A stretch of 64,000 nucleotides of DNA, from NCBI GenBank assembly GCA_017503725.1, contig JAFVSL010000003.1, forward strand, positions 6,236-70,235, written 5' to 3'. Below the pieces are notes generated by a model. It searched no databases. It saw only the letters and a list, made by a program, of their open reading frames with translations, and was not told the origin of the DNA. Shown in pieces: positions 16,932-46,741 of the stretch; positions within the stretch are counted from its first letter, which is position 1, and each line of letters starts with the position of its first letter. The DNA is from Alphaproteobacteria bacterium (GTDB lineage: Bacteria > Pseudomonadota > Alphaproteobacteria > Rs-D84). Both the position numbers and the translations under genes were made by a program.

Positions 16932-17837
16932 ATGAAAAAAATAGTTTCCTTGGCGGTATTAACTGCATTGGTGTCCGCGTGTGCGGATTTAAGTACAACA
17001 TCTCAGCCTGCGGGTTATGGCGCGGATGGCTTTGGCGAAGAAACCTTGGTTGCGGCACCTGCGGCCGAACAATCATTGAATACGGATGCGTATTTGTTGG
17101 CGCCGGCACCAAAATATTACATTGGCACCGCGTACAAGGTCGAAGATGTTCAATACATCCCGGTCGAAGATATGTCTTATAACCAGACGGGTGTTGCGGG
17201 CATCATTCCAACTGAATTAAATGGCACCAAGACCAGCAATGGTGAAACATTTGATGCCGGTCAATTATTGGCGACCAGCAAAACATTACCATTGCCAACA
17301 ATTGCACGTGTGACAAATCTGGATAATGGTCAGTCTGTTGTTGTGCGTGTAAATAATCGTGGTCCATTTGTAAATACACGTATTATGGACTTGTCACCGG
17401 CGGCTGCACAAAAAATCGGTCTGAATGGCCAGGGCAAGGTCCAGGTCCAAGTTATGGTTAATGAATCCAACGCGGTCAAGGCCGCAACCCTGGGTGCAAA
17501 TACACCGGCCCAACCGGCGGTTGTTGCGGCCCCGGTTGTAACCGAGACGGTTGCCGTTGCCACGACCCCGGTTGAAACACCGGCACCCGTTGCCACCGGC
17601 GATTACAGTGTACAGGTTGCCGCATTCTATGCCGAAGATAGTGCAACAACATTGGCAAATCGTATGAAAACATACGGCGATGCGGTTGTTGTTAACGAGG
17701 GCGATATGTACAAGGTTCGCATTATCAACCTGGATGCAACCCAGGCACGTGGTGTAATTGATGCCCTGCGTAATAACGAGGGTATGGCCCCCGGCTTATT
17801 AAAATCCGGTCGTTGGGTCAACGCCGACAGCATTTAA
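16932..17837 (+). CDS. rlpA: septal ring lytic transglycosylase RlpA family lipoprotein with SPOR domain
   Basis: Lipobox VSAC. DPBB core TSNGETFD...TLPLPTIARVTNLDNGQSVVVRVNNRGPF. C-terminal SPOR domain (YSVQVAAFYAEDSATTLANRM). Confidence 0.88.
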   Translation: MKKIVSLAVLTALVSACADLSTTSQPAGYGADGFGEETLVAAPAAEQSLNTDAYLLAPAPKYYIGTAYKVEDVQYIPVEDMSYNQTGVAGIIPTELNGTKTSNGETFDAGQLLATSKTLPLPTIARVTNLDNGQSVVVRVNNRGPFVNTRIMDLSPAAAQKIGLNGQGKVQVQVMVNESNAVKAATLGANTPAQPAVVAAPVVTETVAVATTPVETPAPVATGDYSVQVAAFYAEDSATTLANRMKTYGDAVVVNEGDMYKVRIINLDATQARGVIDALRNNEGMAPGLLKSGRWVNADSI

Positions 17838-17869
17838 AAAAATCCCCGCCAAATGGCGGGATTTTTTTT
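17836..17869 (+). terminator. rho-independent terminator after rlpA
   Basis: aaaaaaatccccgccaaatggcgggatttttttt. Confidence 0.85.
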
Positions 17870-17959
17870 CAAAGTTCAAAGTGCATAGTGCAAAGTTCAA
17901 TTAATGAATACATAATACTTAGATAAATAAAAGTTTATTTAACAAAAACGTTTCAGATT

Positions 17960-18118
17960 TTTGTCATTCCGGGGCGTATCGGGCCCCGAAAAATTCAAAT
18001 GAATTTTTTGGGTGATGGTGCCCCCGGAATCCAGGTGTAGGCAAATAAAAAGGAAATATGACCTGGGTCCCGTGGTCAAGCCACGGGATGACAGAATTTT
18101 TTTTGCAAAAAATTCTGT
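17960..18118. repeat. small palindromic MITE/REP-like elements (gtcattccgggg...ccccggaat and cccgtggtcaagccacggg types)
   Basis: Hairpin-forming GC-rich palindromes. Spurious ORFs across them translate to 'VVKPRDD' and 'WIPGSSPGMT'-type peptides, as known for short palindromic repeats of intracellular proteobacteria. Copy 1 carries an extra nested palindrome (ccccgaaaaattcaaatgaattttttggg) that copy 2 lacks. Confidence 0.7.
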
Positions 18119-18155
18119 TGTACTTCCTGCGATAAACTTTTATTTATATAAGCAA

Positions 18156-18184
18156 TTGCGCAAATGGAAACAATCGGTTATAAT
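18156..18184 (+). promoter_or_regulatory. sigma70-type promoter TTGCGC-N17-TATAAT of cassette 1
   Basis: -35 at 18156-18161 and -10 at 18179-18184 with 17-nt spacing. The same geometry (TTGCGT-N17-TATAAT) sits at the equivalent position of copy 2. Confidence 0.7.
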
Positions 18185-18190
18185 AATCGT

Positions 18191-18422
18191 GTTATGGTGA
18201 TTTTGCCATAATGAGGTGTAGTGACCTCTGTACTGGTGTCGGAATACAAAACTATGCCCATAGCGGTGTCGGTGGCGTATTCTGATAAATAGCTCCTGAT
18301 ATTGACGTCAGGAGGGTTGCGAATATATTGAATAAGCACACAATTCCAGTAATTGTCACTAACCTCCTGGCCACTCGTGAGAACGCGTGGTTTTTTCTTG
18401 TTAAAAAAAGGAGAAAAAGACA
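18191..18422 (+). promoter_or_regulatory. conserved ~230-nt 5' leader (candidate cis-regulatory RNA) of cassette 1
   Basis: Elements in order:
- +1 palindrome TTATGGTGATTTTGCCATAA (18192-18211)
- 24-codon uORF (18211-18285)
- helix CTCCTGA/TCAGGAG (18293-18299 / 18308-18314)
- alternative partner AACCTCCTG (18361-18369)
- hairpin plus T-run (18371-18396)
- SD aggag and ATG 18423
All are mirrored in copy 2. Confidence 0.6.
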
Positions 18423-18902
18423 ATGAAAAAAATATTGTTTGCGTTATTGCTTTTTGGAACGACTACCCATAGTAATGCAGCGACAGATTCCCAACAACTA
18501 TGTCATCCGTATGCAAACACCAGCCTTGCCGCAGAGTGCACTGTAATAAAAACAAATGCAATTGGTGCAGACGTATCTTGTTCACATCCGCTACTTGACA
18601 AGCCAGTAATGATCCATATTGTATCCAGATGCACATCGGATAGATTGGACTGTGTCGCACCTGGCTGTTCTAGCACTTTAGGGTTAACCTCTTTTAGACA
18701 AAAATATACTGCAGAATATCCTTTGCGATATTGTTGGTGCCAACGAACCGAACCGACAATGTCAGGTTTTGTCTACGCAACTGATGATGGGGATGTAGAC
18801 CGCTGTTCAAAAAACTGCGCAGAAACCTGTGCGGACATTTTAACAACCAAGAACCTTACAACCGTTCGTCGTAATCTACTTCAAGGTGTAGTAGTTTTTT
18901 AA
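18423..18902 (+). CDS. secreted cysteine-rich protein, 'YC[WF]C' family (159 aa)
   Basis: Signal peptide MKKILFALLLFGTTTHSNA. 14 Cys in the mature part. Core motif RYCWCQRTEPTMSGFVYA...CSKNCAETCA is shared with the ORFs at 18921 and 35467. Confidence 0.75.
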   Translation: MKKILFALLLFGTTTHSNAATDSQQLCHPYANTSLAAECTVIKTNAIGADVSCSHPLLDKPVMIHIVSRCTSDRLDCVAPGCSSTLGLTSFRQKYTAEYPLRYCWCQRTEPTMSGFVYATDDGDVDRCSKNCAETCADILTTKNLTTVRRNLLQGVVVF

Positions 18903-18920: not shown

Positions 18921-19724
18921 ATGAATAAGAAATTTATAAACGCTTTTATATTTGTTTTATGCGCAAACACAGCGATAGCACGTTCTGTGACCCTGTGTGT
19001 CAATCCAGACATACTTAACACATCTGTGACAAATTGGACCATTGGCACGGGCATAATCCAAAATTCAGGGAGTGGATACATCAATTTTAAAGCAAGAGTT
19101 ACAATCAACGACGGTGCCAATTATTTTATGTATACTAACGTATTGATTGATTCAAGATGCGGCAAAGTTTTAGATACGAACGTGTACAATAAGGCTTTTA
19201 ATGAGGACGATTTCTTAAACGATGCACATACAGGCAACAGCTATTGTTTCTGTAAAATGGTACGCCCATTCGTAACCCCATATTTTGCAGCCACATATGG
19301 ACCGCAAACTTCGATCCCCTATGATAATTGCGTTAATAACTGCGCTTATTATTGTGCGCATACTGTTCCAAGAGACGGTTTTCCAAACTTCATACTGGGT
19401 CAGCTTTTCAATATGCCAAATTTTGGAACTGACTATATTTCTACAGATGCTGTAACGAGAGGCCAATGCCCAACGAATTATTTGCCTATCGAAAAGGACG
19501 GCGTTGGTTTTGAAACTGATTGTACAGACACCGGTGGCACAGTATACACTAACTCCGTATTTGACTATGCCACGGCAGTAACCAGTTGCTTTTCCTCCGA
19601 TTTAGTTCCTGGCGAACCTTGTGCGATGTTTTATTGGGGCGGATATGAAGGCTCTGACGCAAGTGGCTACTTTTCTATAAAATCTAAAATATGCAATGAA
19701 TTCCCAGCAGAAGGGCTGTTTTAA
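18921..19724 (+). CDS. secreted cysteine-rich protein, 'YC[WF]C' family with C-terminal G-x-Y-x-x-D-x-SG module (267 aa)
   Basis: Signal peptide MNKKFINAFIFVLCANTAIA. Core SYCFCKMVRPFVTPYFA...CVNNCAYYCA. The C-terminus CAMFYWGGYEGSDASGYFSIKSKIC resembles the C-termini of the 34976 ORF and the giant protein. Confidence 0.75.
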   Translation: MNKKFINAFIFVLCANTAIARSVTLCVNPDILNTSVTNWTIGTGIIQNSGSGYINFKARVTINDGANYFMYTNVLIDSRCGKVLDTNVYNKAFNEDDFLNDAHTGNSYCFCKMVRPFVTPYFAATYGPQTSIPYDNCVNNCAYYCAHTVPRDGFPNFILGQLFNMPNFGTDYISTDAVTRGQCPTNYLPIEKDGVGFETDCTDTGGTVYTNSVFDYATAVTSCFSSDLVPGEPCAMFYWGGYEGSDASGYFSIKSKICNEFPAEGLF

Positions 19725-21649: not shown

Positions 21650-21822
21650 AAATACAAAAGGGGGTTATTTTGTCGGAATTTTTCCACCGACGGAACCGAT
21701 TGTACTATTTTCTTTACAGATATGCAAGTTTATTTATCAAAACGATTGCACCACTCGGTATATCGTATACCGACGACACAGGAACATACGAATTTACAGA
21801 TGCGTGTACGATGAGCAACTAA
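21650..21822 (+). pseudogene. frameshifted relic of a cysteine-rich family gene (C-terminal module only)
   Basis: Frame 1 reads ...APLGISYTDDTGTYEFTDACTMSN*, against APAGESYTDDTGIYEFTDACAME* for the 34976 ORF. Upstream similarity (STDGTDCTIFF vs SSPSGDCIMYA) lies in a different frame. There is no start codon or signal peptide. Confidence 0.55.
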
Positions 21823-34975: not shown

Positions 34976-35455
34976 TTATTCCATCGCACACGCATCTGTA
35001 AATTCATATATGCCGGTGTCATCGGTATACGACTCGCCCGCGGGCGCGTACATTATGCAATCCCCGGATGGGCTTGACACCAAACACGATTCCGCCGTGC
35101 CAATGGCGATTGTGCCACTGGGGCAACTGGTTGCAAGGGTGATATATGGCCTGTCAATCGCGATATATCCCGCTGGACAATCCGTACTGGGCACATTACC
35201 CAAAATACACACACCGGCGTCACCGCATTTGAATCCACTGGCACAGGGTGGCACACCGGTGTAAACCGTCAGTGTGCTACTGGTACAGGTCTGTCCCAGT
35301 GTTGCCGCCGCCACACAGGTTGCCAGTGATAGACTACTCGTTCGCAAACATACCCCAGAATCACATTGCGTACTGTATAAACAATTTTGACCATTTGCGA
35401 GCCCTGCAATCGCGGATAACGGCGCCAGAGACATTAAAAATATCAATCGCTTCAT
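34976..35455 (-). CDS. secreted cysteine-rich protein with C-terminal G-E-x-Y-x-D-D-T-G...C module (159 aa)
   Basis: ATG 35455 with an aaggg SD 8 nt upstream (the track ORF begins at GTG 35464). Signal peptide MKRLIFLMSLAPLSAIAG. 15 Cys in the mature part. C-terminus CIMYAPAGESYTDDTGIYEFTDACAME. Starts 11 nt after the stop of the upstream gene. Confidence 0.75.
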   Translation of the reverse strand: MKRLIFLMSLAPLSAIAGLANGQNCLYSTQCDSGVCLRTSSLSLATCVAAATLGQTCTSSTLTVYTGVPPCASGFKCGDAGVCILGNVPSTDCPAGYIAIDRPYITLATSCPSGTIAIGTAESCLVSSPSGDCIMYAPAGESYTDDTGIYEFTDACAME

Positions 35456-35466
35456 TCGCGCCACCC

Positions 35467-35916
35467 TTAGTTTGATATTGAGCTAAACAGCGCGGACCGG
35501 AACTCGGGATAGTACTGAGCGTGCGTCGCACAATTGCCCGAACAGTAGAACGCGCAATTACTGGCGGGCGTGTATATGTTGGTGTATACCCAAGACGAAA
35601 CGGCCGGTTCAACCATCTTGCACCAGCAATAAAAATTGACTTCACTTGAGGCGTCGCTTAGCGTTGGTAATGCGCCGTCTGAATATATTGCATAATCCGT
35701 ATCGCCCTTTACATTAGAACACGCCGAAACTCCCTTAATCGGGACGTTGGTACCATCGGTGGTACAAGTTACCTCCCATTCGGCCGTACCATTCCAGTTG
35801 ACTGGCGTTGATGTACACGTGGTGGTTGATGAATCCAATGCCACGCATTGTTGTACCGCCATTGCGGGCACGGCAAGCAACGTGCCGACTGCGGTTAAGG
35901 TTAAAAGTTTTTTCAT
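35467..35916 (-). CDS. secreted cysteine-rich protein, 'YC[WF]C' family (149 aa)
   Basis: ATG 35916 with a gggag SD (the track ORF begins 13 codons upstream). Signal peptide MKKLLTLTAVGTLLAVPAMA. Core FYCWCKMVEPAVSSWVYT...CAFYCSGNCA. Confidence 0.75.
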   Translation of the reverse strand: MKKLLTLTAVGTLLAVPAMAVQQCVALDSSTTTCTSTPVNWNGTAEWEVTCTTDGTNVPIKGVSACSNVKGDTDYAIYSDGALPTLSDASSEVNFYCWCKMVEPAVSSWVYTNIYTPASNCAFYCSGNCATHAQYYPEFRSALFSSISN

Positions 35917-36161
35917 ATGTATCACTCCCTTTCTTTGTTCTTCGCGAAAAAACAAAAACCACCGAAAACTTTCGAGTGGTCAGGAGGTTAGAAACAATCT
36001 TGTGAATTGTGTGCTTATTCAATATATTCGCAACCCTCCTGACACTAATGTGCTCAGGAGTTTTATTTCATCAAAACACGACACGCCGGCAATTTACCAT
36101 TGCGTCATCTTTTAATGCACAAGTCGGGTTTCTACACCCCATTATGGCAAATCGCCATAAC
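35917..36161 (-). promoter_or_regulatory. conserved ~245-nt 5' leader (candidate cis-regulatory RNA) of cassette 2
   Basis: Mirror of 18191-18422:
- palindrome TTATGGCGATTTGCCATAA (36142-36160)
- 23-codon uORF (36071-36142)
- CTCCTGA/TCAGGAG helix with a different loop
- the same 40-nt invariant core
- AACCTCCTG
- hairpin plus T-run (about 35949-35980). Confidence 0.6.
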
Positions 36162-36167
36162 ACACCA

Positions 36168-36196
36168 ATTATAACTAAATCTTTCCCCTTACGCAA
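36168..36196 (-). promoter_or_regulatory. sigma70-type promoter TTGCGT-N17-TATAAT of cassette 2
   Basis: -35 at 36191-36196 and -10 at 36168-36173 on the minus strand. Same spacing and position as in copy 1. Confidence 0.7.
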
Positions 36197-36454
36197 TTGC
36201 AATGATAAATAAAAGTTTATCGCAGGAAGTACGAACAGAATTTTTTGCAAAAAAATTCTGTCATCCCGTGGCTTGACCACGGGACCCAGGTCATATTTCT
36301 TTTTTTATTTGCTTTCACCTGGATTCCGGGGTCAAGCCCCGGAATGACAAAAACGTTAAACGTTTTTGTAAACTGATTACCCCACTAAACTTTTATTTAA
36401 CGAAGTAATATTATGTATGCCAACACTAATCACTAACCACTTACGGCTCACCAC

Positions 36455-36480
36455 TAAAAAATCCCCCAAACGGGGGATTT
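36455..36480 (-). terminator. rho-independent terminator after the giant gene
   Basis: The minus strand reads aaatcccccgtttgggggatttttt directly after the stop at 36484. Confidence 0.85.
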
Positions 36481-36483
36481 CCC

Positions 36484-39400
36484 TTACCAAGACATATATC
36501 CGGGGTTACATTTACGTTCGCACTTTTTCGTGTCTGGATTCCATATCATTGTTCCGGTTTCGTCTTCGTATTCTTCACCAACTGGACAAATTGGAACGCA
36601 CTCATTATTTTCAAGGTTATACAATTCTCCCTGGTACATACAGGCCGCAATCGTACATCCTTCAATATAACTGCTTGCCGCGTCTTGCCCCAGTACGCTT
36701 TTGGCATTGCGACAGCGTCCACATTGTTTGTTTGGTTCGTCTGATTCATATGAATCATTTGTATATCCGGGTTCGCACGACGTTGCGATACATTCGCCCC
36801 ACGTGCCGCGATTTTCATCCCATTCACGTGTTCCCGTACCGTGTTCAACCGAGCACACCTCTACATCCGGGACACAGGCATTTGATGAAACGTGATATCC
36901 ATCAACGCATTCTGTAATCTTGCAGATTCCAAATGCGCCCAACTTGTTGTCCCACGTCTGACTGGCCGCATATGCGTTTGGTGCCGTGCAAGTTTTTACG
37001 TCATCTGCGCACTGGTCGCCCTCTGGATGGAATCCTGTATGACATTTCGCCACCAGACAGTTTCCATTTGGTTTGTACGCGGTTGCATTGGCGCGTTCAC
37101 ATCTCTGACAACGACCATCAATCAATTCATAGTCTGGATTACAAGATGTTTCAACGCACGTCTCGTATCCCTTGATTGTCTGAATTTCGCACGGATTTCC
37201 CGTCTCAGACATTCCCTTGAATGTACAAACATTGTCGTACTGTACGGTGTCACTGTCGCGTATTGCCATACCGCCCAAGATTTCGTAATCTTCACACGTT
37301 GTATAGCATTGTTCAATCTTGGTTGAACCCGCACCGGACAATTTATGTGTGCCACCCGTTAATTCATCACAGGTCATTGGTACGCCATCTGGGGTACCGT
37401 CTAAATCAATATCCGACCCAGACATTGCATCACAAACACTGTTTTCTGGGCACAATTCACATTGTGATTTATCCCCCGCCAGATAGTATCTTGTATCACA
37501 TACCTGAATTTCACAAGTGTCTGTCATATCCGCACCCTGATAGTCGCGGCCAACCATTGTTGTGACGTTGATCGGCGCATCACAGTCGCCAAAGCATTGT
37601 CCCACATTGGTCGAACCCGCATCTGATTCTGGGTAACGCCCATCAAACAGCGCGCTACACACCTGTGGTTCAGCATTCGCGACACCGTCAAATCCTGTAC
37701 GTGTGGATTCATCACAAATACTGCCGGCTGGACAAATATCACACTGATTATTATTGATGTAATATTTTTCATCACACGTATCCAACATACACGCCGTGCA
37801 ATCGGACGAATAATCTTCTGCATTCGTGTTGTATCCACAGGTCTTAATTCCGCCACCGTGTGCAACAGAGCAGGGCATTTCAGTCATAAAGCACGCGGAT
37901 GCATCACTGCTGGTGTCTGATTCTGTTTGTCCCGCGCGACCGTCAAATGTTGCACAACCCTGGCGTGCTGTTGGGCGTCCCTCGTTACCCGCATCTGCAA
38001 CCGGCCCAAAGAAGCCATAGCCAACCTTGGTACAATCCGTATCGCCAATCGCATTCCAATAGTATCCTGGGTCACACTTCTGGAACATACGCGCACGACA
38101 TTCCGTGTATCCTTTGTTCTCGGGCGAATAGATACAGTATTGGAATCCAGAACCGTGATCTGATGTGAATGGATTTTCCGCCTTGAAGCACGATGTAGAT
38201 TCCGCAGCATTATCGACGTTTGTGTCACCACCGTCTGGACATGGCGTTCTGTTCAAACTGCCTGGTTCACTGTACGCATCATATCCAACCGCCGTACAAT
38301 CAATTGCCGCCGCATTTTCACGATAGTATCCACCCTGGCACGTTGTTATATACTTGTCACGACAATTGGTCGCATACTTCGCACTGCCGTCTGCATTGTC
38401 GGACGTGTAATTACATACCTGGGTACCCGCGCCGTATGTCGCGTTGTATTCAACGGTCTTGTAACATTCACCGGCATCATCTGCGGTCGTCAGTGTGCCC
38501 GTCAACCCATTTTCTGGACACTCATAACGTTTCAGGTCATCTGTACCACTGTAATGGTTTATACCAACCTCGACACAGTCTATACCAGATACATAATAGT
38601 ATCCCGCAACACATTTCTTGACCGAATGGTCGCGACAGGAGGCATCATATGCCTTTGTGTCTTCATCATAGTTACACGTTTGTGTCCCACTGGCCTTGCC
38701 GGTTGTGGACGTGTATGCCAACCCTTGCTTATAGCATACACCACTGTTGGTCGCGCTTGCGCCACCGGCCGATATGCCACCATCTGGGCAAATTTCGTGA
38801 CCGCCAACGACACCCGTATCTGTTGGGTATGTTCCGCCCGGACACCAGTGATCGGCTGCACAAACAACACAATCTCCGCCCCGGCCTGGGTAATAATATC
38901 CAGCCTCACAGACCGTGTCGCCTTCGGACCAAACAACATTTGCGGTTGTATCGTTTGTTGTCACACGCAGGGCCGCATTTGTATTTTGCAAAGTACCCGC
39001 CGCATCAATAATCATAACGTCGCCGACGCTGTAACCCGCAAAGTTGTATCCAGATTTACCGGGCAGGGCACTCGTATCTATTGTTGTTAATGCCTTGTTT
39101 GCCGCTACATCTTCGAACCAGCCCACCGTGTATTTCAAATATACTGGTTTTTGTGTTGCGTTTTCTGTGGCATCACTTGCCACCAATTCAATTTTGAATA
39201 CATCTGGTTCCCAAATGGCGTACAGTTTTGTATCGCTACCGTTGGCCGAGATGTTTTCAGATGTTGCGACATTCGCGGCATAGCACGCACCCGAACCGTT
39301 CGCATTGGTGCACCATTTGTTCGCAGACACATATCCCGCACGTGCCAGTCCATCCGTCGCTGGTAACTTACAGGCGCCACTGTCAAATGTGCATTCGACA

Positions 39401-42400
39401 TATGCTGTAACATCGCCTGTGCCCTGGTTTTTATCCAGCGTAACCGTATATTTATTCGCGACACATTGCGGATTTGTGCCGTTTTTCGCAGTATAACCCG
39501 CATTGCACGTAATTGTATAAGAACAGGCTGCGTATTCAGCACTGGCCGTGTTGTATGGCGCGTTGGCTTCGTCTGGTGTTACAGTCTTGCTGTTTGTGAT
39601 GTCTGACGTTGTCAAAGAACAGGCACTGTAACAATCCGCCTCTGTTGCACGTGGCGCATTAGAACCGATTCCGTCATTTGCCGCACCGGTTTCGCCTGGA
39701 CAGGCGTGCGCGGCCATACTTTCTGTGTCCTCGGTCCCGTTTTCTACAACCGGTGCCGGACTGTAATATCCATCTGTTACCGGCGTACATGCGTTGCCAA
39801 CACCGCTATAGTAATAGCCCGCATCACACGTCAGCGCAATAGAGTCACAGTTTGTTGTGTATATTGCACTATTACCGCTACCACTTGTATACCAACAATC
39901 CCACTTTGCGGTACCAAAGTTGAATGTCATATCACCCCCATCGGTTGTAACCTTGCGACAGTCTGATATGCTGTCCGCACCAGCGGTGGTTGTTGCACCA
40001 TTCGCCGGACAAGTTTCCATACAACCGGTCGAGCCTTCGTTAATTTCGCCACTGCCCGGGCAATATTTTCCCAATTCACAGCGTGTACGCACACCGTTGT
40101 TGTAATAATATCCGGCCTCGCACGCAACCATATTCTGGTCCCAAATCGCATACAGGGTAATTTCACCACCATCCGACAGCAGGTTTTTAATACTGCCGTT
40201 TGCGACAATGGTTTTTCCTTTGCCGTCTTTCTGGGTATTCCAGACACTGAATGTCTTGTTCGGCATTTCAATTGTATCAGCGGCTGCACATTCCATATCA
40301 TACACGCATGTAACATCCGCAACATTCAGGCTTCCTGCATCTGTCGGATCAAAATGCACCGTAAATGTTGTTGGTGTCCAGTTTGCAACAACGGTTATGT
40401 GACCTGTTGTGCCCGCAACAATTTCATTGTTTTCAACCTTGTCACCGGTCCAACCATCAAAGATATAGCCCGTTTTTACAGGATCCTTTAATGCAATTGG
40501 CGTATCTGATATTGTATAAGCATCCGGATTTTCGGCATTGTTGGTACCGCCGTCCAAATCATATGTAATCACATACGAATCAGAAGTCCAGTTCGCAGTC
40601 AGAACCATATCGCCGATTGAACCATTTATAATCTGTGTAACCGTATTGCCATTTGCGTCGGTCCACTTGCTGAAAGTAAACCCTGTTTTTTCTGGTTTCT
40701 TTAAAACGATAGTGTTTGTTTCAACAGTGTACTCATCTGGGTTAGATTCACCGGTCTTATAAGTCCCGCCATTAAGATTGTATGTAATCTTATAGGTAAC
40801 AGGTGTCCACTTTGCCCAGAATTCTTTGTTGCCGATTGTGCCTGCTGAAATCTCGGTAACACTTGTGTTGAAACCGCTGTCGCTGAACCAGCCACCAAAA
40901 TCATAACCACGTTTTGTTGGATTGGATAACACAAATGCATCTTCAATTGTATATGTTTCTGGGTTTGAATTGCCCGCATAATATCCGCCATTCAAGTTGT
41001 ATTTGATGGTATACGAATTTGGCGTCCACTGTGCAACAAGCGTTATGTCTGCCGTATACGTGTTATTTGCAGGCAACAGACCATCTGTGCCGATAACAAG
41101 TGTACCCTTGCTATCATAATAGCCCATAAATGTATAACCATTGCGTGTAGGCAATACAATCGATTCCAAGGACGCACCACCGGCGGCATTGTCATACCAG
41201 CCAACCGTATATGTTTGATAAACGGTGCCCTGACCACCAACGCCGTTATTATCATTCAGCGTAACCGCATATGTGCCCGGTGTACATGATGCAACATCCG
41301 ATGCCGTCATTGGTGAACCATACAATGTTTTTCTATAACCATATTGAACCGCAGACGTCGTATTTGCAACATATCCAGCATCACAAACAAATGTAAACGA
41401 ACAGAAAGAGGTTGGTGTACAAACCGTCTGTGGATACCAACGATATCCCTTGTTAGGCAATGTACCTTCTGTACACGTGGCGTGTTCTGGACAGTGGTTT
41501 ATATTGCCAGACACTTCTCCTTGCTCATTTATAACATAATCGTTCGCATAATCACACGTTGGTGCACAGGCATCATAACAAGCATTTGGACCATTCTGTA
41601 TCGAAGCCATAGAAGAATAGTTATAAAAGTCAACGGGTTCCAAACTCTCGCACGTTGCGCTGCAGGTTGGATATTCTTCAGACATGTAATAGCCCGATTT
41701 ACACACGGTTTGTGAAGAATATAAATCAACCGGACACGCTGTGCTAGATACAACACACTCTTCTGAATCGTAATACTGTACGCCGGACAACTTTGTGTCA
41801 GAAAGAAATTCGCATTTTAAGAAATTTCCTGGACAACTGCTTGGTACTACACAGCTTATCTCACAAGTCTTGTAACACTGTTGTTCGGCGTCGCCGGCAA
41901 CACAAATATTGTAAGTGCCCTGATATTCGGCGCCCAGCGCAGAACACGACGTTGTACAACTTGAGCATACGCCATTGCTTGGGTATGTGCCACTTGCGCA
42001 ACCACAGGCACCATCTTCAGTGCTGTTGCACGCATTCCATTGTGCGGTAAAGGTCAGACTGGCCGTACAGGTGCCCTTTGTGACTGATGTGACCGTCGCA
42101 CCCGTGTCATCCTTCCATCCTGCAAATGTATAACCCGCGCGTGCAATGTTATCAGCCGTCGGCAGGGCAAACGTATCCGTATCCGCATTACACGACAACA
42201 TATAGTCACCGCTCCATTTTGTGTCGTCTGGGGTTACGTATGTGATGGTCTTTGCCCCTTCGGCAACATATTCTGCGGTAAATGTTTTTCCACTTGTATA
42301 AGTCCATAGAAAATCTGTTCCCGCGGTGTGAATTGTTGTCCCGTCATTCCAGTGGCTGAAATCATAACCAACTGGTTCGGTGCAAGTATTTGTCGCCGGT

Positions 42401-45400
42401 GCAAAGCCCGTATTATAGATTGCCGTTGCATTTGCCGGTGCGGTACCCGTTCCGTCGCCACAATTGTATGTAACGGTATAGGACTTTGGAGTACATACAC
42501 AGGACAAGCCGGTGCATTTTGGTGTTTCGTAACCCGTGGCGCATTCCGCACTTGCCACACAGGTGTTATTAGAAACACTGACCGAACACGTTGATACACC
42601 GGTACCCTTGGTGCAATCTGCACACTTGGTCCATTTTGCGGTGAACGACATTTCGGATACACACGTGCCCGCCGCAACAGATGTTGCCTTTTCCCCCGTT
42701 GCGTCGTTGTACCATCCATCAAATGTATGACCAGCGCGTGTAATTGTTGGCAATGTGATATCGCCCGACATAACGTTACATTCTGTGTCACTGACCGTTG
42801 TTCCACCGTTTTCATTAAATGTAACATTGTTCATACCGCCAACAGCCCACTGGGCATATAGTGTCGTTGCCTTTGCAATATCCCAGGTGCGTGCCGATTG
42901 ACCCACCGCAGTATAGTACTGTGTGCCACCCGTCTTGGCATCAAACCAACCTGTGAACACGTATCCAGCCTTTGTTGGTGCGGTCGCACTGATTGCCGGC
43001 ATTGTGCTGTCATACGTTGCTAAAACATCTGCTGACTGACCGCCTGTACCACCATTTGCGTCAAACGATATTGTGTACTGGTTCGCCGTCTTACAGGCAT
43101 AGTATGTGCTGTTTGACGGTGTTGTAAACGTGCTTACCTTAGCGGTACAGGATTGGGATGTTCCCCAACCGCCTGTAAATGTATATCCGGTCTGTGTCAG
43201 GACAGATGCATCACCAAAATTACAATCTGCACCCTGGTAACAGGTCACAGATGCGCCAAGCGAACCGGCCCCGCCATTTTTATCCAGCGTTATCACGCGA
43301 TAACAGTCGGATGATGAATCGTGGTCTGCCGCTGTTGTGCCGGTGATGGTATATCCAGTCGTACAACTGTTTGCGCAACTGGTTGCAGACGAACCGTTTG
43401 TGATCTGGTATTTACCTGTTCCACATACAACGCACGACAGGGTTGCGCCATTCACATATGCACCGGCTTTGGCTGTAACAGATGTAACAGTTGGCACACA
43501 CGCGGTCTCGGTTGTAATGCCATAAAAGTCTTTATAATTGCAAGACGCCCATGTCGCACTGTGACAGTTTGTTGGGATATTGCCCTTGGTAACCGTTACA
43601 AGATTATAACAATCTTCTTTTGCATCAGCCCCCAGTTCACTGTCCGGATATTCCGTCGGACAGGTCCCAGTAATCCCCTGATTAACAGAGGTGCTATATG
43701 TGTATTCACCACCACCACAGTAACTGTCTTCTGGACAGGATTCACACTGTGTTTTTAACATTGGCAAATATTCGCCTTTGTCACACGTATATTTGTTGGC
43801 GGTCCATTGTGCGGCCAGTGTCGTGTTCCCCACCGTTGTATAGGTGTATTCGGTGTTCGCCTTTGGGTACTTGCCGTTCCAACCCGTAAATGTATATCCC
43901 GTACGGGCACACATAGCCCCTGGCTGGGTTGTGAATTTATCGTCAAATGTCACCGTTTGTGTATTGCTGTATGGGGTTTGAGTATTGCCACCATTACAAT
44001 TATAAGTGACTGTATATTCATTTGGGGTTAATTTACCATAGACCGTGATATTTCCCGTGCCAGATGTCTTTGTAATTCTGTTGTTGTATGCGGCATCATT
44101 AAACCAACCGCCAAACGTATATCCGGCTTTGGATGCGTCTGTGAACGTCACAGGCGATTCGACCGTATAGGTTGTAGCATTGCTGTGTGTCGCACCATCA
44201 GCGATTTTATATGTAATTGTATATGATACTGCATCACCCCAAATTGCATATAGCGAAACGCTGCCATTATTATTGGTTGTCAGGTTGGAAACGCTTTCTT
44301 TGTCTGAATATTCAACATTGCCATCACTGCTGCGTGCCCATCCCTGGAATTTTAGACCGTCTTTTGTAAACTTGTTTTCGCTCAGATTTTGTGCAACACC
44401 ATATGTAAATGACTGGCTGCTCATTGTGCCCGAACCGGTATTTGCATTAAACGTAACCGTATATTTATTTGGTGTAGCGGAACATTTGCTTACGTTGTTA
44501 CTGGACGTGCCACAGGTTGCTGTATTATATCCTGCCGACGCGGTTGCTGTTGCGGTACCACAGATGCCCAACGGTGCACTTGGTGTACAGGATGCAACAC
44601 CTGTTCCCCGGTCACAGGTACACTCTGCGCCCCAGACTGCGTACAAATTAACCTTGGCGCCGTCTACACTGCTCAGGTTTGATACACTTTGTTTGTTGGC
44701 GTATTTGGCACTGCTTGCGCCACTGGTTTCGGCCCAACCCAAGAACTGTTTCGCGCCATTTGTGAATCCATTTGTGGACAAGGTGTCCGACTTGTTGTAT
44801 GTGTGCGTGCTGGTTGCGGTTGTTCCAGAACCACCATTTGCATTATATACAATCGTATATGTAATCGGATCACAACTTGGGTTATACGCTCCGGAATTTG
44901 AGATGTCCTTGTACCCGGTTGCACAGTTGGTTGCATAAGAACACTGGTTATTCACGACACTTAACACACAGGTCGCACCCGTTCCCTCTGCACACGCTGT
45001 ACAGGCGCTCCACACCGCATACAGTGTCTTTTCACCACTTGTGATAATATTTTTGATACTTGCGCCCGGCGCGTATTCGGCCACCGTTGCATTGTTTGTC
45101 GATGCCCAACCTTGGAAAGTACTGTTGGTCTTCAACATTGTACCCTGGCTTGTCGCCAAACAGGTCCCATTATAAGAACAGTTCTGCGAACTGACCGCTG
45201 GTACGCCAGAGGTTGCGCCGTTTGTATCATATTTAATGGTTATCGAATTTGCAGAACACGCATAATTATAAGATGTAGAACCAACCGTGCCCGTGTATGT
45301 CCCGCTGGTCCCATAGCCATTGTTACAAGTAACTGTACATTTTGGTGCGTTTGTCGTTGTGTTCGCTGGTTTCGCGGTTCCATTATCAGCACTGCAAGTT

Positions 45401-46608
45401 GGTGTTTCCCAAACTGCGTATACAGTTGTGGTCGCCTTGAATGTCAAAGCAGTGCTGCCACTTGTGGCGTCGTTTGATGTGGCCCATCCTTTGAATATCT
45501 TTGCGCCATTGCTAAGCCCGCAAGAAGATGCGTTCCACGATGGTAATGTGCAGGCCTTATTATAGTAACACGTTGCCGAACCATCAGATGTGCTGGATGT
45601 ACCACCACAGGTGCCCGACCCACCATTTTTATTTAATGTAATTGTGAAATAACAGTCATTTTCTGTTTTTGCGCTTGTTGCACTGGTACCCGCCGGACAT
45701 ATTGTCAGACCCGCATCAACACCGCTGTTTGACCCGGCTACGCCCTTGCAATAATTGCCGGCCGTACACTGTGCACATTTCGCTGTATCTGCATCCCAAT
45801 ATGTACCGGCCTCACAATCATATGTGCTACCACCCCAAATCGCATAAAGTTTTACATTGTCTGCCGGTGTGTATTCGCCGGTGCTGCCGCTTGTGGCGGT
45901 GCTTGATGTGGCCCAGCCATTAAAGATATATCCGGCGCGTTCAGGGGTTGGCATTGTTACGGGTACTCCCGTCCATTGGGCATACAACGTTAAATTTTTT
46001 GAGGTTGCTTTGATTTGTGTTGTTCCGGCGTCTGTTATATATCCAGTTGCACCAACAAGTTGTGTGCCACCCGTTGCCGCAGTGAAATATCCATTAAATG
46101 TGTACGTGGCAGTTTGGGATGTTGTGGCAACTGTACCACCGTTTGCATCATATGTAATTGTATATGAACGCTTTGGTACGGTAATTGGGTTCGCAGATGT
46201 GGTCATAACCTTTGTGCGCGCGGCGTCCAAATACACATTTGTTCCATATTTCCCATAGATTTTAGTTGTGCCGGCGGTTGTCGCACTTGTGTTATTCAAA
46301 GTAATAGTTGTTTCAATTAGCGAACAAGCTGTTGTTGTGGTAGTGGTTGCCCCCGTTGTGGTGCCACCAACACTGTATCCGGTTGAACACGTACAGGCCG
46401 ACGCCGAATTTTCATCGGTCGTAGAGGAATTTTCTGGACACGCCACACAGGAATTTCCGACCTCGGTTCCATTCAGATAATACCCTGCATTACAGGACGT
46501 ATACATCTTGATATCGTCACAGATGTATCCCGCCGCAAACGAATTCGTTGTGAAAACGACACCCGCAAATAATACAAAAAACCTCAGGAAACAGCGTATT
46601 TTTCCCAT
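36484..46608 (-). CDS. giant secreted cysteine-rich mosaic protein (3,374 aa): Listeria/Bacteroides-type B-repeat modules plus CxxGYY cysteine-rich repeats; putative surface adhesin/host-interaction protein
   Basis: Uninterrupted 10.1-kb frame. ATG 46608 with a gagaggaag SD. Signal peptide MGKIRCFLRFFVLFAGVVFTTNSFA.
- About 19 modules resemble YT[VI]T[FY]xxNGG....GY.F.GW......[LF][YT]A.W (Flg_new/InlB B-repeat-like), spanning roughly 40140-46100.
- A Cys-rich insert lies at about 41350-42030.
- The C-terminal region 36484-40140 is dominated by C-x-[AGP]-G-Y-Y...C...G-x-Y repeats resembling ephrin-receptor-like/GCC2_GCC3/VSP-type modules. Confidence 0.85.
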   Translation of the reverse strand: MGKIRCFLRFFVLFAGVVFTTNSFAAGYICDDIKMYTSCNAGYYLNGTEVGNSCVACPENSSTTDENSASACTCSTGYSVGGTTTGATTTTTTACSLIETTITLNNTSATTAGTTKIYGKYGTNVYLDAARTKVMTTSANPITVPKRSYTITYDANGGTVATTSQTATYTFNGYFTAATGGTQLVGATGYITDAGTTQIKATSKNLTLYAQWTGVPVTMPTPERAGYIFNGWATSSTATSGSTGEYTPADNVKLYAIWGGSTYDCEAGTYWDADTAKCAQCTAGNYCKGVAGSNSGVDAGLTICPAGTSATSAKTENDCYFTITLNKNGGSGTCGGTSSTSDGSATCYYNKACTLPSWNASSCGLSNGAKIFKGWATSNDATSGSTALTFKATTTVYAVWETPTCSADNGTAKPANTTTNAPKCTVTCNNGYGTSGTYTGTVGSTSYNYACSANSITIKYDTNGATSGVPAVSSQNCSYNGTCLATSQGTMLKTNSTFQGWASTNNATVAEYAPGASIKNIITSGEKTLYAVWSACTACAEGTGATCVLSVVNNQCSYATNCATGYKDISNSGAYNPSCDPITYTIVYNANGGSGTTATSTHTYNKSDTLSTNGFTNGAKQFLGWAETSGASSAKYANKQSVSNLSSVDGAKVNLYAVWGAECTCDRGTGVASCTPSAPLGICGTATATASAGYNTATCGTSSNNVSKCSATPNKYTVTFNANTGSGTMSSQSFTYGVAQNLSENKFTKDGLKFQGWARSSDGNVEYSDKESVSNLTTNNNGSVSLYAIWGDAVSYTITYKIADGATHSNATTYTVESPVTFTDASKAGYTFGGWFNDAAYNNRITKTSGTGNITVYGKLTPNEYTVTYNCNGGNTQTPYSNTQTVTFDDKFTTQPGAMCARTGYTFTGWNGKYPKANTEYTYTTVGNTTLAAQWTANKYTCDKGEYLPMLKTQCESCPEDSYCGGGEYTYSTSVNQGITGTCPTEYPDSELGADAKEDCYNLVTVTKGNIPTNCHSATWASCNYKDFYGITTETACVPTVTSVTAKAGAYVNGATLSCVVCGTGKYQITNGSSATSCANSCTTGYTITGTTAADHDSSSDCYRVITLDKNGGAGSLGASVTCYQGADCNFGDASVLTQTGYTFTGGWGTSQSCTAKVSTFTTPSNSTYYACKTANQYTISFDANGGTGGQSADVLATYDSTMPAISATAPTKAGYVFTGWFDAKTGGTQYYTAVGQSARTWDIAKATTLYAQWAVGGMNNVTFNENGGTTVSDTECNVMSGDITLPTITRAGHTFDGWYNDATGEKATSVAAGTCVSEMSFTAKWTKCADCTKGTGVSTCSVSVSNNTCVASAECATGYETPKCTGLSCVCTPKSYTVTYNCGDGTGTAPANATAIYNTGFAPATNTCTEPVGYDFSHWNDGTTIHTAGTDFLWTYTSGKTFTAEYVAEGAKTITYVTPDDTKWSGDYMLSCNADTDTFALPTADNIARAGYTFAGWKDDTGATVTSVTKGTCTASLTFTAQWNACNSTEDGACGCASGTYPSNGVCSSCTTSCSALGAEYQGTYNICVAGDAEQQCYKTCEISCVVPSSCPGNFLKCEFLSDTKLSGVQYYDSEECVVSSTACPVDLYSSQTVCKSGYYMSEEYPTCSATCESLEPVDFYNYSSMASIQNGPNACYDACAPTCDYANDYVINEQGEVSGNINHCPEHATCTEGTLPNKGYRWYPQTVCTPTSFCSFTFVCDAGYVANTTSAVQYGYRKTLYGSPMTASDVASCTPGTYAVTLNDNNGVGGQGTVYQTYTVGWYDNAAGGASLESIVLPTRNGYTFMGYYDSKGTLVIGTDGLLPANNTYTADITLVAQWTPNSYTIKYNLNGGYYAGNSNPETYTIEDAFVLSNPTKRGYDFGGWFSDSGFNTSVTEISAGTIGNKEFWAKWTPVTYKITYNLNGGTYKTGESNPDEYTVETNTIVLKKPEKTGFTFSKWTDANGNTVTQIINGSIGDMVLTANWTSDSYVITYDLDGGTNNAENPDAYTISDTPIALKDPVKTGYIFDGWTGDKVENNEIVAGTTGHITVVANWTPTTFTVHFDPTDAGSLNVADVTCVYDMECAAADTIEMPNKTFSVWNTQKDGKGKTIVANGSIKNLLSDGGEITLYAIWDQNMVACEAGYYYNNGVRTRCELGKYCPGSGEINEGSTGCMETCPANGATTTAGADSISDCRKVTTDGGDMTFNFGTAKWDCWYTSGSGNSAIYTTNCDSIALTCDAGYYYSGVGNACTPVTDGYYSPAPVVENGTEDTESMAAHACPGETGAANDGIGSNAPRATEADCYSACSLTTSDITNSKTVTPDEANAPYNTASAEYAACSYTITCNAGYTAKNGTNPQCVANKYTVTLDKNQGTGDVTAYVECTFDSGACKLPATDGLARAGYVSANKWCTNANGSGACYAANVATSENISANGSDTKLYAIWEPDVFKIELVASDATENATQKPVYLKYTVGWFEDVAANKALTTIDTSALPGKSGYNFAGYSVGDVMIIDAAGTLQNTNAALRVTTNDTTANVVWSEGDTVCEAGYYYPGRGGDCVVCAADHWCPGGTYPTDTGVVGGHEICPDGGISAGGASATNSGVCYKQGLAYTSTTGKASGTQTCNYDEDTKAYDASCRDHSVKKCVAGYYYVSGIDCVEVGINHYSGTDDLKRYECPENGLTGTLTTADDAGECYKTVEYNATYGAGTQVCNYTSDNADGSAKYATNCRDKYITTCQGGYYRENAAAIDCTAVGYDAYSEPGSLNRTPCPDGGDTNVDNAAESTSCFKAENPFTSDHGSGFQYCIYSPENKGYTECRARMFQKCDPGYYWNAIGDTDCTKVGYGFFGPVADAGNEGRPTARQGCATFDGRAGQTESDTSSDASACFMTEMPCSVAHGGGIKTCGYNTNAEDYSSDCTACMLDTCDEKYYINNNQCDICPAGSICDESTRTGFDGVANAEPQVCSALFDGRYPESDAGSTNVGQCFGDCDAPINVTTMVGRDYQGADMTDTCEIQVCDTRYYLAGDKSQCELCPENSVCDAMSGSDIDLDGTPDGVPMTCDELTGGTHKLSGAGSTKIEQCYTTCEDYEILGGMAIRDSDTVQYDNVCTFKGMSETGNPCEIQTIKGYETCVETSCNPDYELIDGRCQRCERANATAYKPNGNCLVAKCHTGFHPEGDQCADDVKTCTAPNAYAASQTWDNKLGAFGICKITECVDGYHVSSNACVPDVEVCSVEHGTGTREWDENRGTWGECIATSCEPGYTNDSYESDEPNKQCGRCRNAKSVLGQDAASSYIEGCTIAACMYQGELYNLENNECVPICPVGEEYEDETGTMIWNPDTKKCERKCNPGYMSW

Positions 46609-46741
46609 ATCTTCCTCTCTTTTGTCTTTTATGGTAGTAAAAATGCGCCATATCGCGCAAGGGGAAATATTAAAAATCAATTTAAAAAATATATTTGACG
46701 CATTTTTGGTGCTTGACTTTTTATAAAAGTGTATTTTTTTG

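Follow-up and report, generated by a model that had tools for sequence, protein, structure and literature searches.

We analysed a stretch of 64,000 nucleotides (nt) of contig JAFVSL010000003.1 (assembly GCA_017503725.1, positions 6,236 to 70,235 of the forward strand), hereafter the window, from an alphaproteobacterium of Rs-D84, an uncultured order with genomes of approximately 0.9 Mb (PMC12306168). Two related blocks lie in the window, at 17908-18422 on the plus strand and at 36418-35917 on the minus strand, inverted with respect to each other and 17.5 kb apart. As the original prediction stated, each block stops at the ATG (18423 and 35916) of an open reading frame (ORF) for a cysteine-rich protein with a signal peptide, here called A1 and A2. 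The window also matches a metagenome scaffold in ENA. Our analysis revealed that both repeats belong to a family of strongly structured RNA leaders that had not been described before. The conserved unit consists of a sigma-70-type promoter, an RNA of about 215 nt and an intrinsic terminator located directly ahead of the ribosome-binding site (Table 1).

Table 1. Features of the two leader copies and of the adjoining DNA, in window coordinates (locus coordinates for the sister subfamily); minus-strand features are given in their reading direction unless they denote a whole unit, and leader and terminator sequences are those of copy 1 unless marked otherwise.
Feature	Copy 1	Copy 2	Strand	Remark
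Whole unit		35944-36196	-	Same fold architecture as copy 1
Promoter	-35 TTGCGC 18156-18161; 17-nt spacer; -10 TATAAT 18179-18184	36196-36168 (-35 TTGCGT)	+ / -	Read directly
P0, 5'-terminal hairpin	18192-18211	36160-36142	+ / -	7/7 pairs compensated; 96-98% of cells paired
S1, 5' strand of P1	18213-18225	36140-36128	+ / -	P1 99.3% paired
S2, 5' strand of P2	18231-18236	36123-36118	+ / -	P2 95.9% paired
P3, long hairpin	18237-18288	36117-36062	+ / -	Variable in sequence and length; base covaries at 4/5 and 5/5 pairs
P4 strand a, CUCCUGA	18293-18299	36060-36054	+ / -	Pairs with strand b across the loop
P4 strand b, GUCAGGAGGG	18307-18316	36043-36034	+ / -	a:b, 4/7 pairs covary (metagenome set)
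PJ hairpin, stem UUGC/GCAC	18317-18339	36033-36011	+ / -	Conserved 15-nt loop GAAUAUAUUGAAUAA at 18321-18335
P5 hairpin, ACAAU/AUUGU	18340-18356	36010-35994	+ / -	Loop 18346-18351 is the 3' strand of P2
P1 3' strand	18355-18366		+	Overlaps strand c
Strand c, CCUCCUGGCC	18363-18372	35987-35978	+ / -	
Intrinsic terminator	18371-18396	35979-35954	+ / -	CCACUCG..CGCGUGG plus U tract; its two basal C also end strand c
Shine-Dalgarno AGGAG	18409-18413		+	ATG at 18423
Gene A1	18423-18902		+	Secreted Cys-rich orphan; no Pfam family; one homologue cluster besides itself
Gene B1	18921-19724		+	Follows A1
Gene A2		35916-35467	-	Secreted, Cys-rich
Gene B2		35455-34976	-	Secreted, Cys-rich
Upstream block	17922-18147	36399-36204		Lineage-specific; DNA folds at z = -6.2 and -7.0
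Five hairpins of upstream block	17942-17964, 17966-18030, 18031-18066, 18068-18088, 18091-18118	36365-36235 (cluster)		
AT-rich quasi-palindrome GATAAA-N6-TTTATC	18131-18147; inverted copy 17922-17937	36221-36204 and 36399-36386		Flanks the five hairpins
Sister-subfamily leaders				L046:2618-2832, L050:2779-3033, L028:7695-7926, L004:3756-3979, L084:2562-2768

The regions 17840-18900 and the reverse complement of 35470-36480 were aligned with MAFFT and scored segment by segment. The proposed end-to-end alignment of the two blocks is real, with 76% identity over aligned bases (67% with gap columns counted), but it is patchy. The 5' hairpin is 95% identical and the 3' domain (18289-18375) 84%, whereas the internal hairpin P3 (18233-18288) reaches 46% and the terminator/Shine-Dalgarno stretch 53%, and a 42-nt indel (17976-18017) interrupts the alignment. 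Despite its low identity, P3 forms a long hairpin in both copies. Identity of the coding sequences is 41%, about the level of a forced alignment of unrelated sequence, and BLASTP of the A1 and A2 products found 13/35 identities only, around the motif YCWC..EP...C..C..CA; the earlier view that the two genes are recognisably related at motif level alone is borne out. A uniform recent duplication, named beforehand as an outcome that would overturn the original prediction, was not found, and a recent duplication or gene conversion of the window copies was rejected from the patchy segment identities. Gene conversion is not needed, since conservation falls on the same segments in about 45 species and the variable segments of the window copies differ by compensatory changes.

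Two elements singled out in the original prediction take on a different meaning in the RNA. The 40-nt invariant run, at 18307-18346(+) and 36004-36043(-), is identical in the two copies and absent from the rest of the window, with none expected by chance; it is not a single-stranded core, being composed of strand b, PJ (including the conserved loop of 15 nt) and the 5' arm of P5. The palindrome at the predicted transcription start is likewise present in both copies, but it is the 5' hairpin P0 of the RNA, in which all seven pairs covary, and not a shared operator: between paralogues of one genome the P0 sequence differs while its pairing is kept.

The leader is not confined to the window. The original prediction proposed searches of relatives with the core sequence and covariance-model searches including metagenomes, and both yielded homologues. 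An exact 23-mer from the core, scanned against one genome per species, was found at 104 loci in about 45 gut alphaproteobacterial species represented by metagenome-assembled genomes (MAGs; Candidatus Enterousia and relatives), with up to 13 copies per genome (SIG48). A covariance model trained on 47 non-redundant copies matched the window exactly twice, at 18184-18405 (copy 1, 185 bits) and 35944-36168 (copy 2, 199 bits); with filters off, no further or degenerate copies were detected in the window, the next best match scoring only 13 bits. The same model matched the genome loci 128 times, and 26 of these matches lack the exact 23-mer. A looser-pattern scan of metagenomes returned at least 120 contigs, with 111 model matches within 100 of the contigs listed. 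The genome and metagenome sets combined hold 227 distinct sequences, and one genome of about 0.9 Mb carries at least 13-15 family copies. In a separate observation, a contig labelled Bacteroides fragilis (L093:546-972) contains two leader copies nearly identical to alphaproteobacterial MAG ones; this contig is probably mis-binned.

No known leader or riboswitch class accounts for these RNAs, as had been suspected. At the gathering threshold, Rfam 15 matched the whole window only with tmRNA (permuted alpha-type) and tRNAs. At E <= 10, 17800-18500 gave nothing credible on 18184-18405, and eight diverse family members had no match on the leaders at E <= 1. Literature searches with the lineage names and with the sequences themselves found no description of such an RNA.

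The TTGCG[CT]-N17-TATAAT promoters that had been noticed ahead of both genes were found where they were expected, and they are a feature of the family. TATAAT is exact in 67 of 94 copies, at a fixed distance of 33-34 nt upstream of S1, and the -35 TTG at 17-nt spacing has frequencies of 0.89, 0.85 and 0.75. P0 begins 6-7 nt past the -10 box. A simple promoter scan omits the window promoters because their -35 box agrees with TTGACA at only 3/6 positions.

Two folds of the leader, State 1 and State 2, are conserved. State 1 consists of P0, P1 (S1 with its 3' partner), P2 (S2 with the P5 loop), P3, the a:b hairpin P4 and an intact terminator. In a MAFFT alignment of 47 copies, 95.8% of State 1 cells were paired, compared with 79.3% in shuffles and 36-53% in slid controls; 27 of 44 pairs had changed on both sides, and the covariation score of 0.473 (shuffles, 0.162) was reached by 0 of 500 shuffles. 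Covarying pairs are distributed over P0 (7/7), P1 (6/12), P2 (6/7), the P3 base (4/5) and the terminator (4/6). The independent metagenome set, whose alignment was fitted to the covariance model and therefore leans towards the structure, gave 95.5% paired cells (shuffles, 70.2%), 37 of 43 doubly changed pairs and a score of 0.599 (shuffles, 0.168), with all pairs of the P3 base (5/5) and the terminator (6/6) covarying. The variable 6-mer of P1 occurs as 25 different sequences, and its exact reverse complement is located upstream in 96 of 106 copies. Each window copy folds with z = -6.0. Unconstrained folding returned State 1 with a complete terminator in 108 of 113 copies, and State 1 was more stable than the fold with b:c enforced by 9.2 +/- 4.4 kcal/mol. 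The leader is a structured domain with covariation of the kind found in riboswitch-like transcription attenuators. The original prediction argued for selection on a regulatory leader; more than 230 homologous leaders in other genomes and metagenomes, with overwhelming covariation, bear this out.

State 2 is a three-way junction in which b:c encloses PJ, with its invariant loop GAAUAUAUUGAAUAA, and P5, and takes the base of the terminator. The b:c duplex has an energy of -17 to -21 kcal/mol, compared with -10 to -14 kcal/mol for a:b. Strands a, b and c co-vary between subfamilies (CUCCUGA/UCAGGAG/CUCCUGA, CUCCAAC/GUUGGAG/CUCCAAC and AUCCAAC/GUUGGAU/AUCCAAC); a further b/c combination, without strand a, is GUGGAUGG/CAUCCAC, and both "codes" are present side by side in single genomes. 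The b:c core is 96% paired, with 6 of 8 pairs compensated, in an alignment that was fitted to State 1. P5 and PJ show compensation in that alignment as well. In P5, 20 sequences swap A-U for U-A, and locus L079 has CCAGU/ACUGG. PJ places 41 distinct complementary stems around one loop; the conservation of this loop was partly imposed by the search patterns, and copies found by the covariance model alone retain GAAUAU..RAAUA in it.

P5 and P2 cannot coexist, because P2 uses the whole P5 loop, and P1 shares two bases with the 3' arm of P5 and four with strand c. The leader therefore has two mutually exclusive sets of pairings, P1/P2/a:b and b:c/P5, both of them conserved, as expected of an attenuator. 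A sister subfamily in the same genomes keeps P1, P2, P5 and b:c with entirely different sequences; its b:c is GGUCGGG/CCCGACC, and the loop of its PJ either reads UUAUAUAUUGAAAG or contains an inserted hairpin. MAGs labelled "uncultured Azospirillum sp." hold a divergent form of the leader (L079:1779-1988 and L091:305-514), which has no strand a and no obvious terminator and whose minimum-energy fold is the three-way junction of State 2.

An intrinsic terminator, a GC-rich, covarying hairpin followed by a U tract, lies between the sensor region and the ORF; a simple scanner misses it in both window copies because of a bulge in the stems. Strand c always ends in the two C with which the terminator stem begins. 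When b:c was enforced, the mean number of terminator pairs fell from 7.0 to 3.3, and the GG beside the U tract was unpaired in 68 of 103 copies. By eye, we observed at many loci that an A tract just 5' of the Shine-Dalgarno sequence is complementary to the terminator U tract and could pair with it, with matching G/C interruptions (18391-18413 in copy 1; for example UUUUGUUUU...AAAACAAAA).

On balance, the leader is probably a riboswitch-like attenuator that is switched by a candidate effector and controls a regulon of orphan secreted cysteine-rich proteins. P0 may serve as a protective 5' hairpin at the start of the leader. In State 1, S1 pairs with the linker and the start of c, S2 with the P5 loop, and a sequesters b, so that the terminator could form fully and transcription would stop. 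In State 2, b:c closes the three-way junction carrying PJ and P5 and runs into the two conserved C at the terminator base, which would leave a weaker terminator and allow read-through into the gene. A putative effector, either a small molecule or an RNA-binding protein, might recognise the junction or the PJ loop and shift the balance to State 2; it would co-regulate at least 13 leader-bearing genes per genome. The analysis demonstrates the family, its promoter, every helix of the two folds, the terminator and the association with genes downstream; we infer that read-through is the regulated step, and likewise its direction and the existence of an effector. With State 1 as the computed ground state, a complete terminator in it and fewer terminator pairs when b:c is enforced, the arrangement is consistent with an attenuator that is off by default and turned on by a signal.

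The weakest part of this model is how the switch reaches the terminator, and several results weigh against the model. The overlap between b:c and the terminator is just 1-2 nt, and when the upstream strands were masked, the terminator was still complete in 49 of 113 copies. Covariation with the variable arms of the terminator was not found for any upstream segment; a classical antiterminator pairing with these arms was rejected for this reason. Furthermore, there are gene-less, stand-alone units with their own promoter and terminator, which pure cis regulation does not need.

In 98 of 107 copies, an ORF that lies on the same strand and has a Shine-Dalgarno sequence begins 43-121 nt past strand c, which leaves no room for a separate promoter, and the Shine-Dalgarno sequence lies 10-30 nt past the terminator. 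Most products have 110-440 residues, a signal peptide and 7-24 cysteines. A Pfam scan of 91 downstream proteins identified 7 small XRE-type helix-turn-helix (HTH) proteins, 3 with Flg_new repeats and 3 with ephrin-receptor-like Cys-rich repeats; at least 78 of the 91 matched no Pfam family. For the A2 product, 189 homologues were found; none of them is named, and every one comes from an Alphaproteobacteria MAG. The best non-self one is 60% identical to A2, whose AlphaFold2 (AF2) model (pLDDT 79.8) has no neighbour in the PDB (best E = 0.83).

The stand-alone units are found at two loci. L120:150-1009(+) contains four complete units in tandem; every unit has a promoter and a terminator of its own, no ORF lies between them, and in the second unit the P1/P2 pairing is lost. 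At L081:5031-6061(-), two adjacent units are followed by an HTH gene and then by a third unit. The gene-less copies suggest that the RNA may have an additional role of its own, perhaps in trans as a decoy that captures whatever recognises the PJ loop. Taken further, the unit could primarily be a small-RNA gene with an efficient terminator, whose RNA of about 200 nt acts in trans as a decoy or sponge for a PJ-loop factor while read-through into the gene is secondary. Besides the units with their own -35 and -10 boxes and terminator (four in L120, two in L081), the PJ loop as the most strictly conserved part and the complete terminator in the computed ground state of nearly all copies fit this view. 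We regard it as unlikely, since a closely spaced ORF with a Shine-Dalgarno sequence follows most copies and has no space for another promoter; in addition, the most variable segments, S1 and S2, pair only with their own 3' partners, unlike seeds for shared targets, loop complements are not enriched in the downstream mRNAs, and the L120 unit without P1/P2 pairing is what would be expected of a decaying copy. In the comparison of the PJ loop with its own downstream mRNA, no trend towards complementarity was found across about 100 copies relative to an antisense control. A segment of the A2 coding sequence, UUAUGCAAUAUAUUC at 35681-35695(-), is complementary to the PJ loop of the A2 leader at 14 of 15 bases; as the other copies, about 100, display no such trend, this match is probably due to chance.

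Conservation could also act on the DNA, the repeats being recombination substrates (by gene conversion or inversion) that shuffle or phase-vary genes for surface and secreted proteins, or else a mobile promoter cassette, with incidental RNA folds. The repeats are multi-copy and precede fast-evolving secreted protein genes, the window copies are inverted, a fragment resembling the end of B2 lies at 21763-21813, and the upstream palindrome block is polymorphic for presence and absence. DNA homology alone does not explain dozens of compensatory changes that keep RNA-type pairing, including G-U, in long-range helices. The window copies differ at P1, P2 and P3 and are thus not being homogenised, identical bases are conserved in about 45 species, and housekeeping genes lie between the copies. 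Taken together, these observations make such an origin highly improbable. An invertible promoter or shufflon and a mobile island were rejected as well: each copy has its own outward-facing promoter, the genes for RNase J, RNase III, CysRS and RpoD lie between the copies, and no recombinase domain was detected in the ten ORFs scanned there.

Attenuation by a leader peptide starting at the AUG just after P0 (AUGGGGUGU...), with a ribosome on S1/S2 freeing the 3' domain, is hardly credible: an AUG stands at that position in 75 of 113 copies and the P0 apex is purine-rich, but non-start codons occupy the position in 20-30% of copies, ORF length varies between 6 and 66 codons, the stops are scattered, and frame 0 is not kept open any better than frame 1, which largely refutes a trp/his-type attenuator and leaves conservation of the RNA strand S1 as the source of the apparent peptide conservation.

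Returning to the riboswitch-like attenuator, we compared the leader with known systems. The closest in mechanism appear to be the three-way-junction terminator riboswitches (purine, including the ON-type pbuE adenine riboswitch). In both, a closing helix (here b:c) encloses two hairpins, its 3' strand abuts or overlaps a terminator before the gene, and two mutually exclusive folds exist. Unlike in purine riboswitches, the competing strands S1, S2 and a of the leader are located upstream of the sensor, the overlap with the terminator is restricted to 1-2 nt, conservation is highest in an AU-rich hairpin loop of 15 nt and not in the junction nucleotides, and no covariance-model match to any Rfam family was obtained. 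In genomic behaviour, the leader resembles the c-di-GMP riboswitches (GEMM-I and c-di-GMP-II), which also occur in many copies per genome ahead of genes for secreted or surface proteins of no assigned function; their Rfam models gave no match at any threshold tried, and the architecture of the leader is different.

It further resembles antitermination regulons with decoys. In the ANTAR/EutV system with EutX (Rli55) and in the BglG/LicT system with its ribonucleic antiterminator (RAT), one RNA motif beside a terminator is common to a regulon, and, as in EutV-EutX, stand-alone motif copies such as those of L120 and L081 could titrate a factor. The leader motif is a 15-nt loop on a stem of 3-7 bp, not the two hexaloop hairpins of ANTAR targets or the terminator-overlapping RAT hairpin, and no ANTAR or CAT-domain protein was found among the proteins scanned here (the downstream products and the ten ORFs between the copies). 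T-box leaders are likewise longer than 200 nt, multi-helix, terminator-ended and present in multiple copies per genome; unlike them, the leader has no specifier loop or T-box sequence. A T-box identity was rejected, since no Rfam T-box match was obtained on the leaders and the cargo consists of secreted cysteine-rich orphans and HTH proteins, not aminoacyl-tRNA synthetase or amino-acid genes. The leader belongs to none of these families.

We regard as possible, though somewhat doubtful as a whole, a more detailed proposal: a new class of bistable leaders of genome-reduced gut Alphaproteobacteria, responsive to a ligand or a protein, in which b:c, PJ and P5 form the sensor, three upstream strands form a default-off anti-sensor, the regulon comprises fast-evolving secreted cysteine-rich proteins of orphan fold and small HTH regulators, and gene-less tandem decoys tune the response. 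In genomes of about 0.9 Mb, at least 13-15 leaders stand ahead of the fastest-evolving secreted proteins. This suggests a single signal that turns on the whole set, and the secreted and surface proteins behind the leaders are probably the organism's main interface with host or partner cells. The family is a well-supported orphan class of regulatory RNA with hundreds of examples, covariation for two folds and competing strands that lie, unusually, upstream of the sensor. The ratio of terminated to read-through transcripts in metatranscriptomes may provide a handle on the signal and on the physiology of this uncultured lineage.

The palindromes upstream of the promoters, which the original prediction counted as part of the shared element, are present in both window copies but represent a lineage-specific add-on outside the family-wide unit. 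The upstream block, about 230 bp long, is shared by 6 loci belonging to at least 5 genomes, and insertions in it fall only within loops. Its markers were detected in only 5 of 227 fetched loci, copy 1 (L001) among them, always adjoining a leader, and the block is absent from the SIG48 orthologue of copy 2 (L075). A check for repetitive extragenic palindromes or miniature inverted-repeat transposable elements found inverted AT-rich ends and the lack of the block in L075, yet only those few loci carry it. The AT-rich site alone adjoins the -35 box in many related leaders, in either orientation, and the right "end" is present at block-free sites; this quasi-palindrome may function as an UP element, or a dimeric DNA-binding protein may use it as its operator. 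An Rfam resemblance of the upstream block, to the Wolbachia small RNA 46 (WsnRNA46, RF02625), scored 20.4 bits (E = 0.28; gathering score 65.3 bits) and is confined to palindrome ends of the GUCAU...AUGAC type.

Minor observations were also made around the leaders. Copy 1 and locus L018 share a 42-nt nested palindromic insertion in the loop of one upstream hairpin (17976-18017). Short, irregular repeats of the CACTA/TAGTG type (for example CACTATCCACTATCCACTAGCCACTAAC) lie between the terminator of the upstream gene and the leader promoter at 36417-36460 and at L013, L016 and L074. Just upstream of copy 2 ends a gene (36484-46680, minus strand) for a 3398-residue secreted protein, rich in cysteine and in repeats, which is preceded by a tRNA-Met gene instead of a family leader. 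The N-terminal cysteine-rich part of B2 scores 29.7 bits against PF01114, the Colipase N-terminal domain of eukaryotes (cut-off 27). A 51-nt inverted repeat, 88% complementary, pairs 21763-21813(+) with 34982-35032(-); the first arm corresponds to the C-terminus of a decayed ORF (..YTDDTGTYEFTDACTMSN) matching the end of B2 (..YTDDTGIYEFTDACAME), has a terminator behind it and appears to be the remnant of another cysteine-rich gene.

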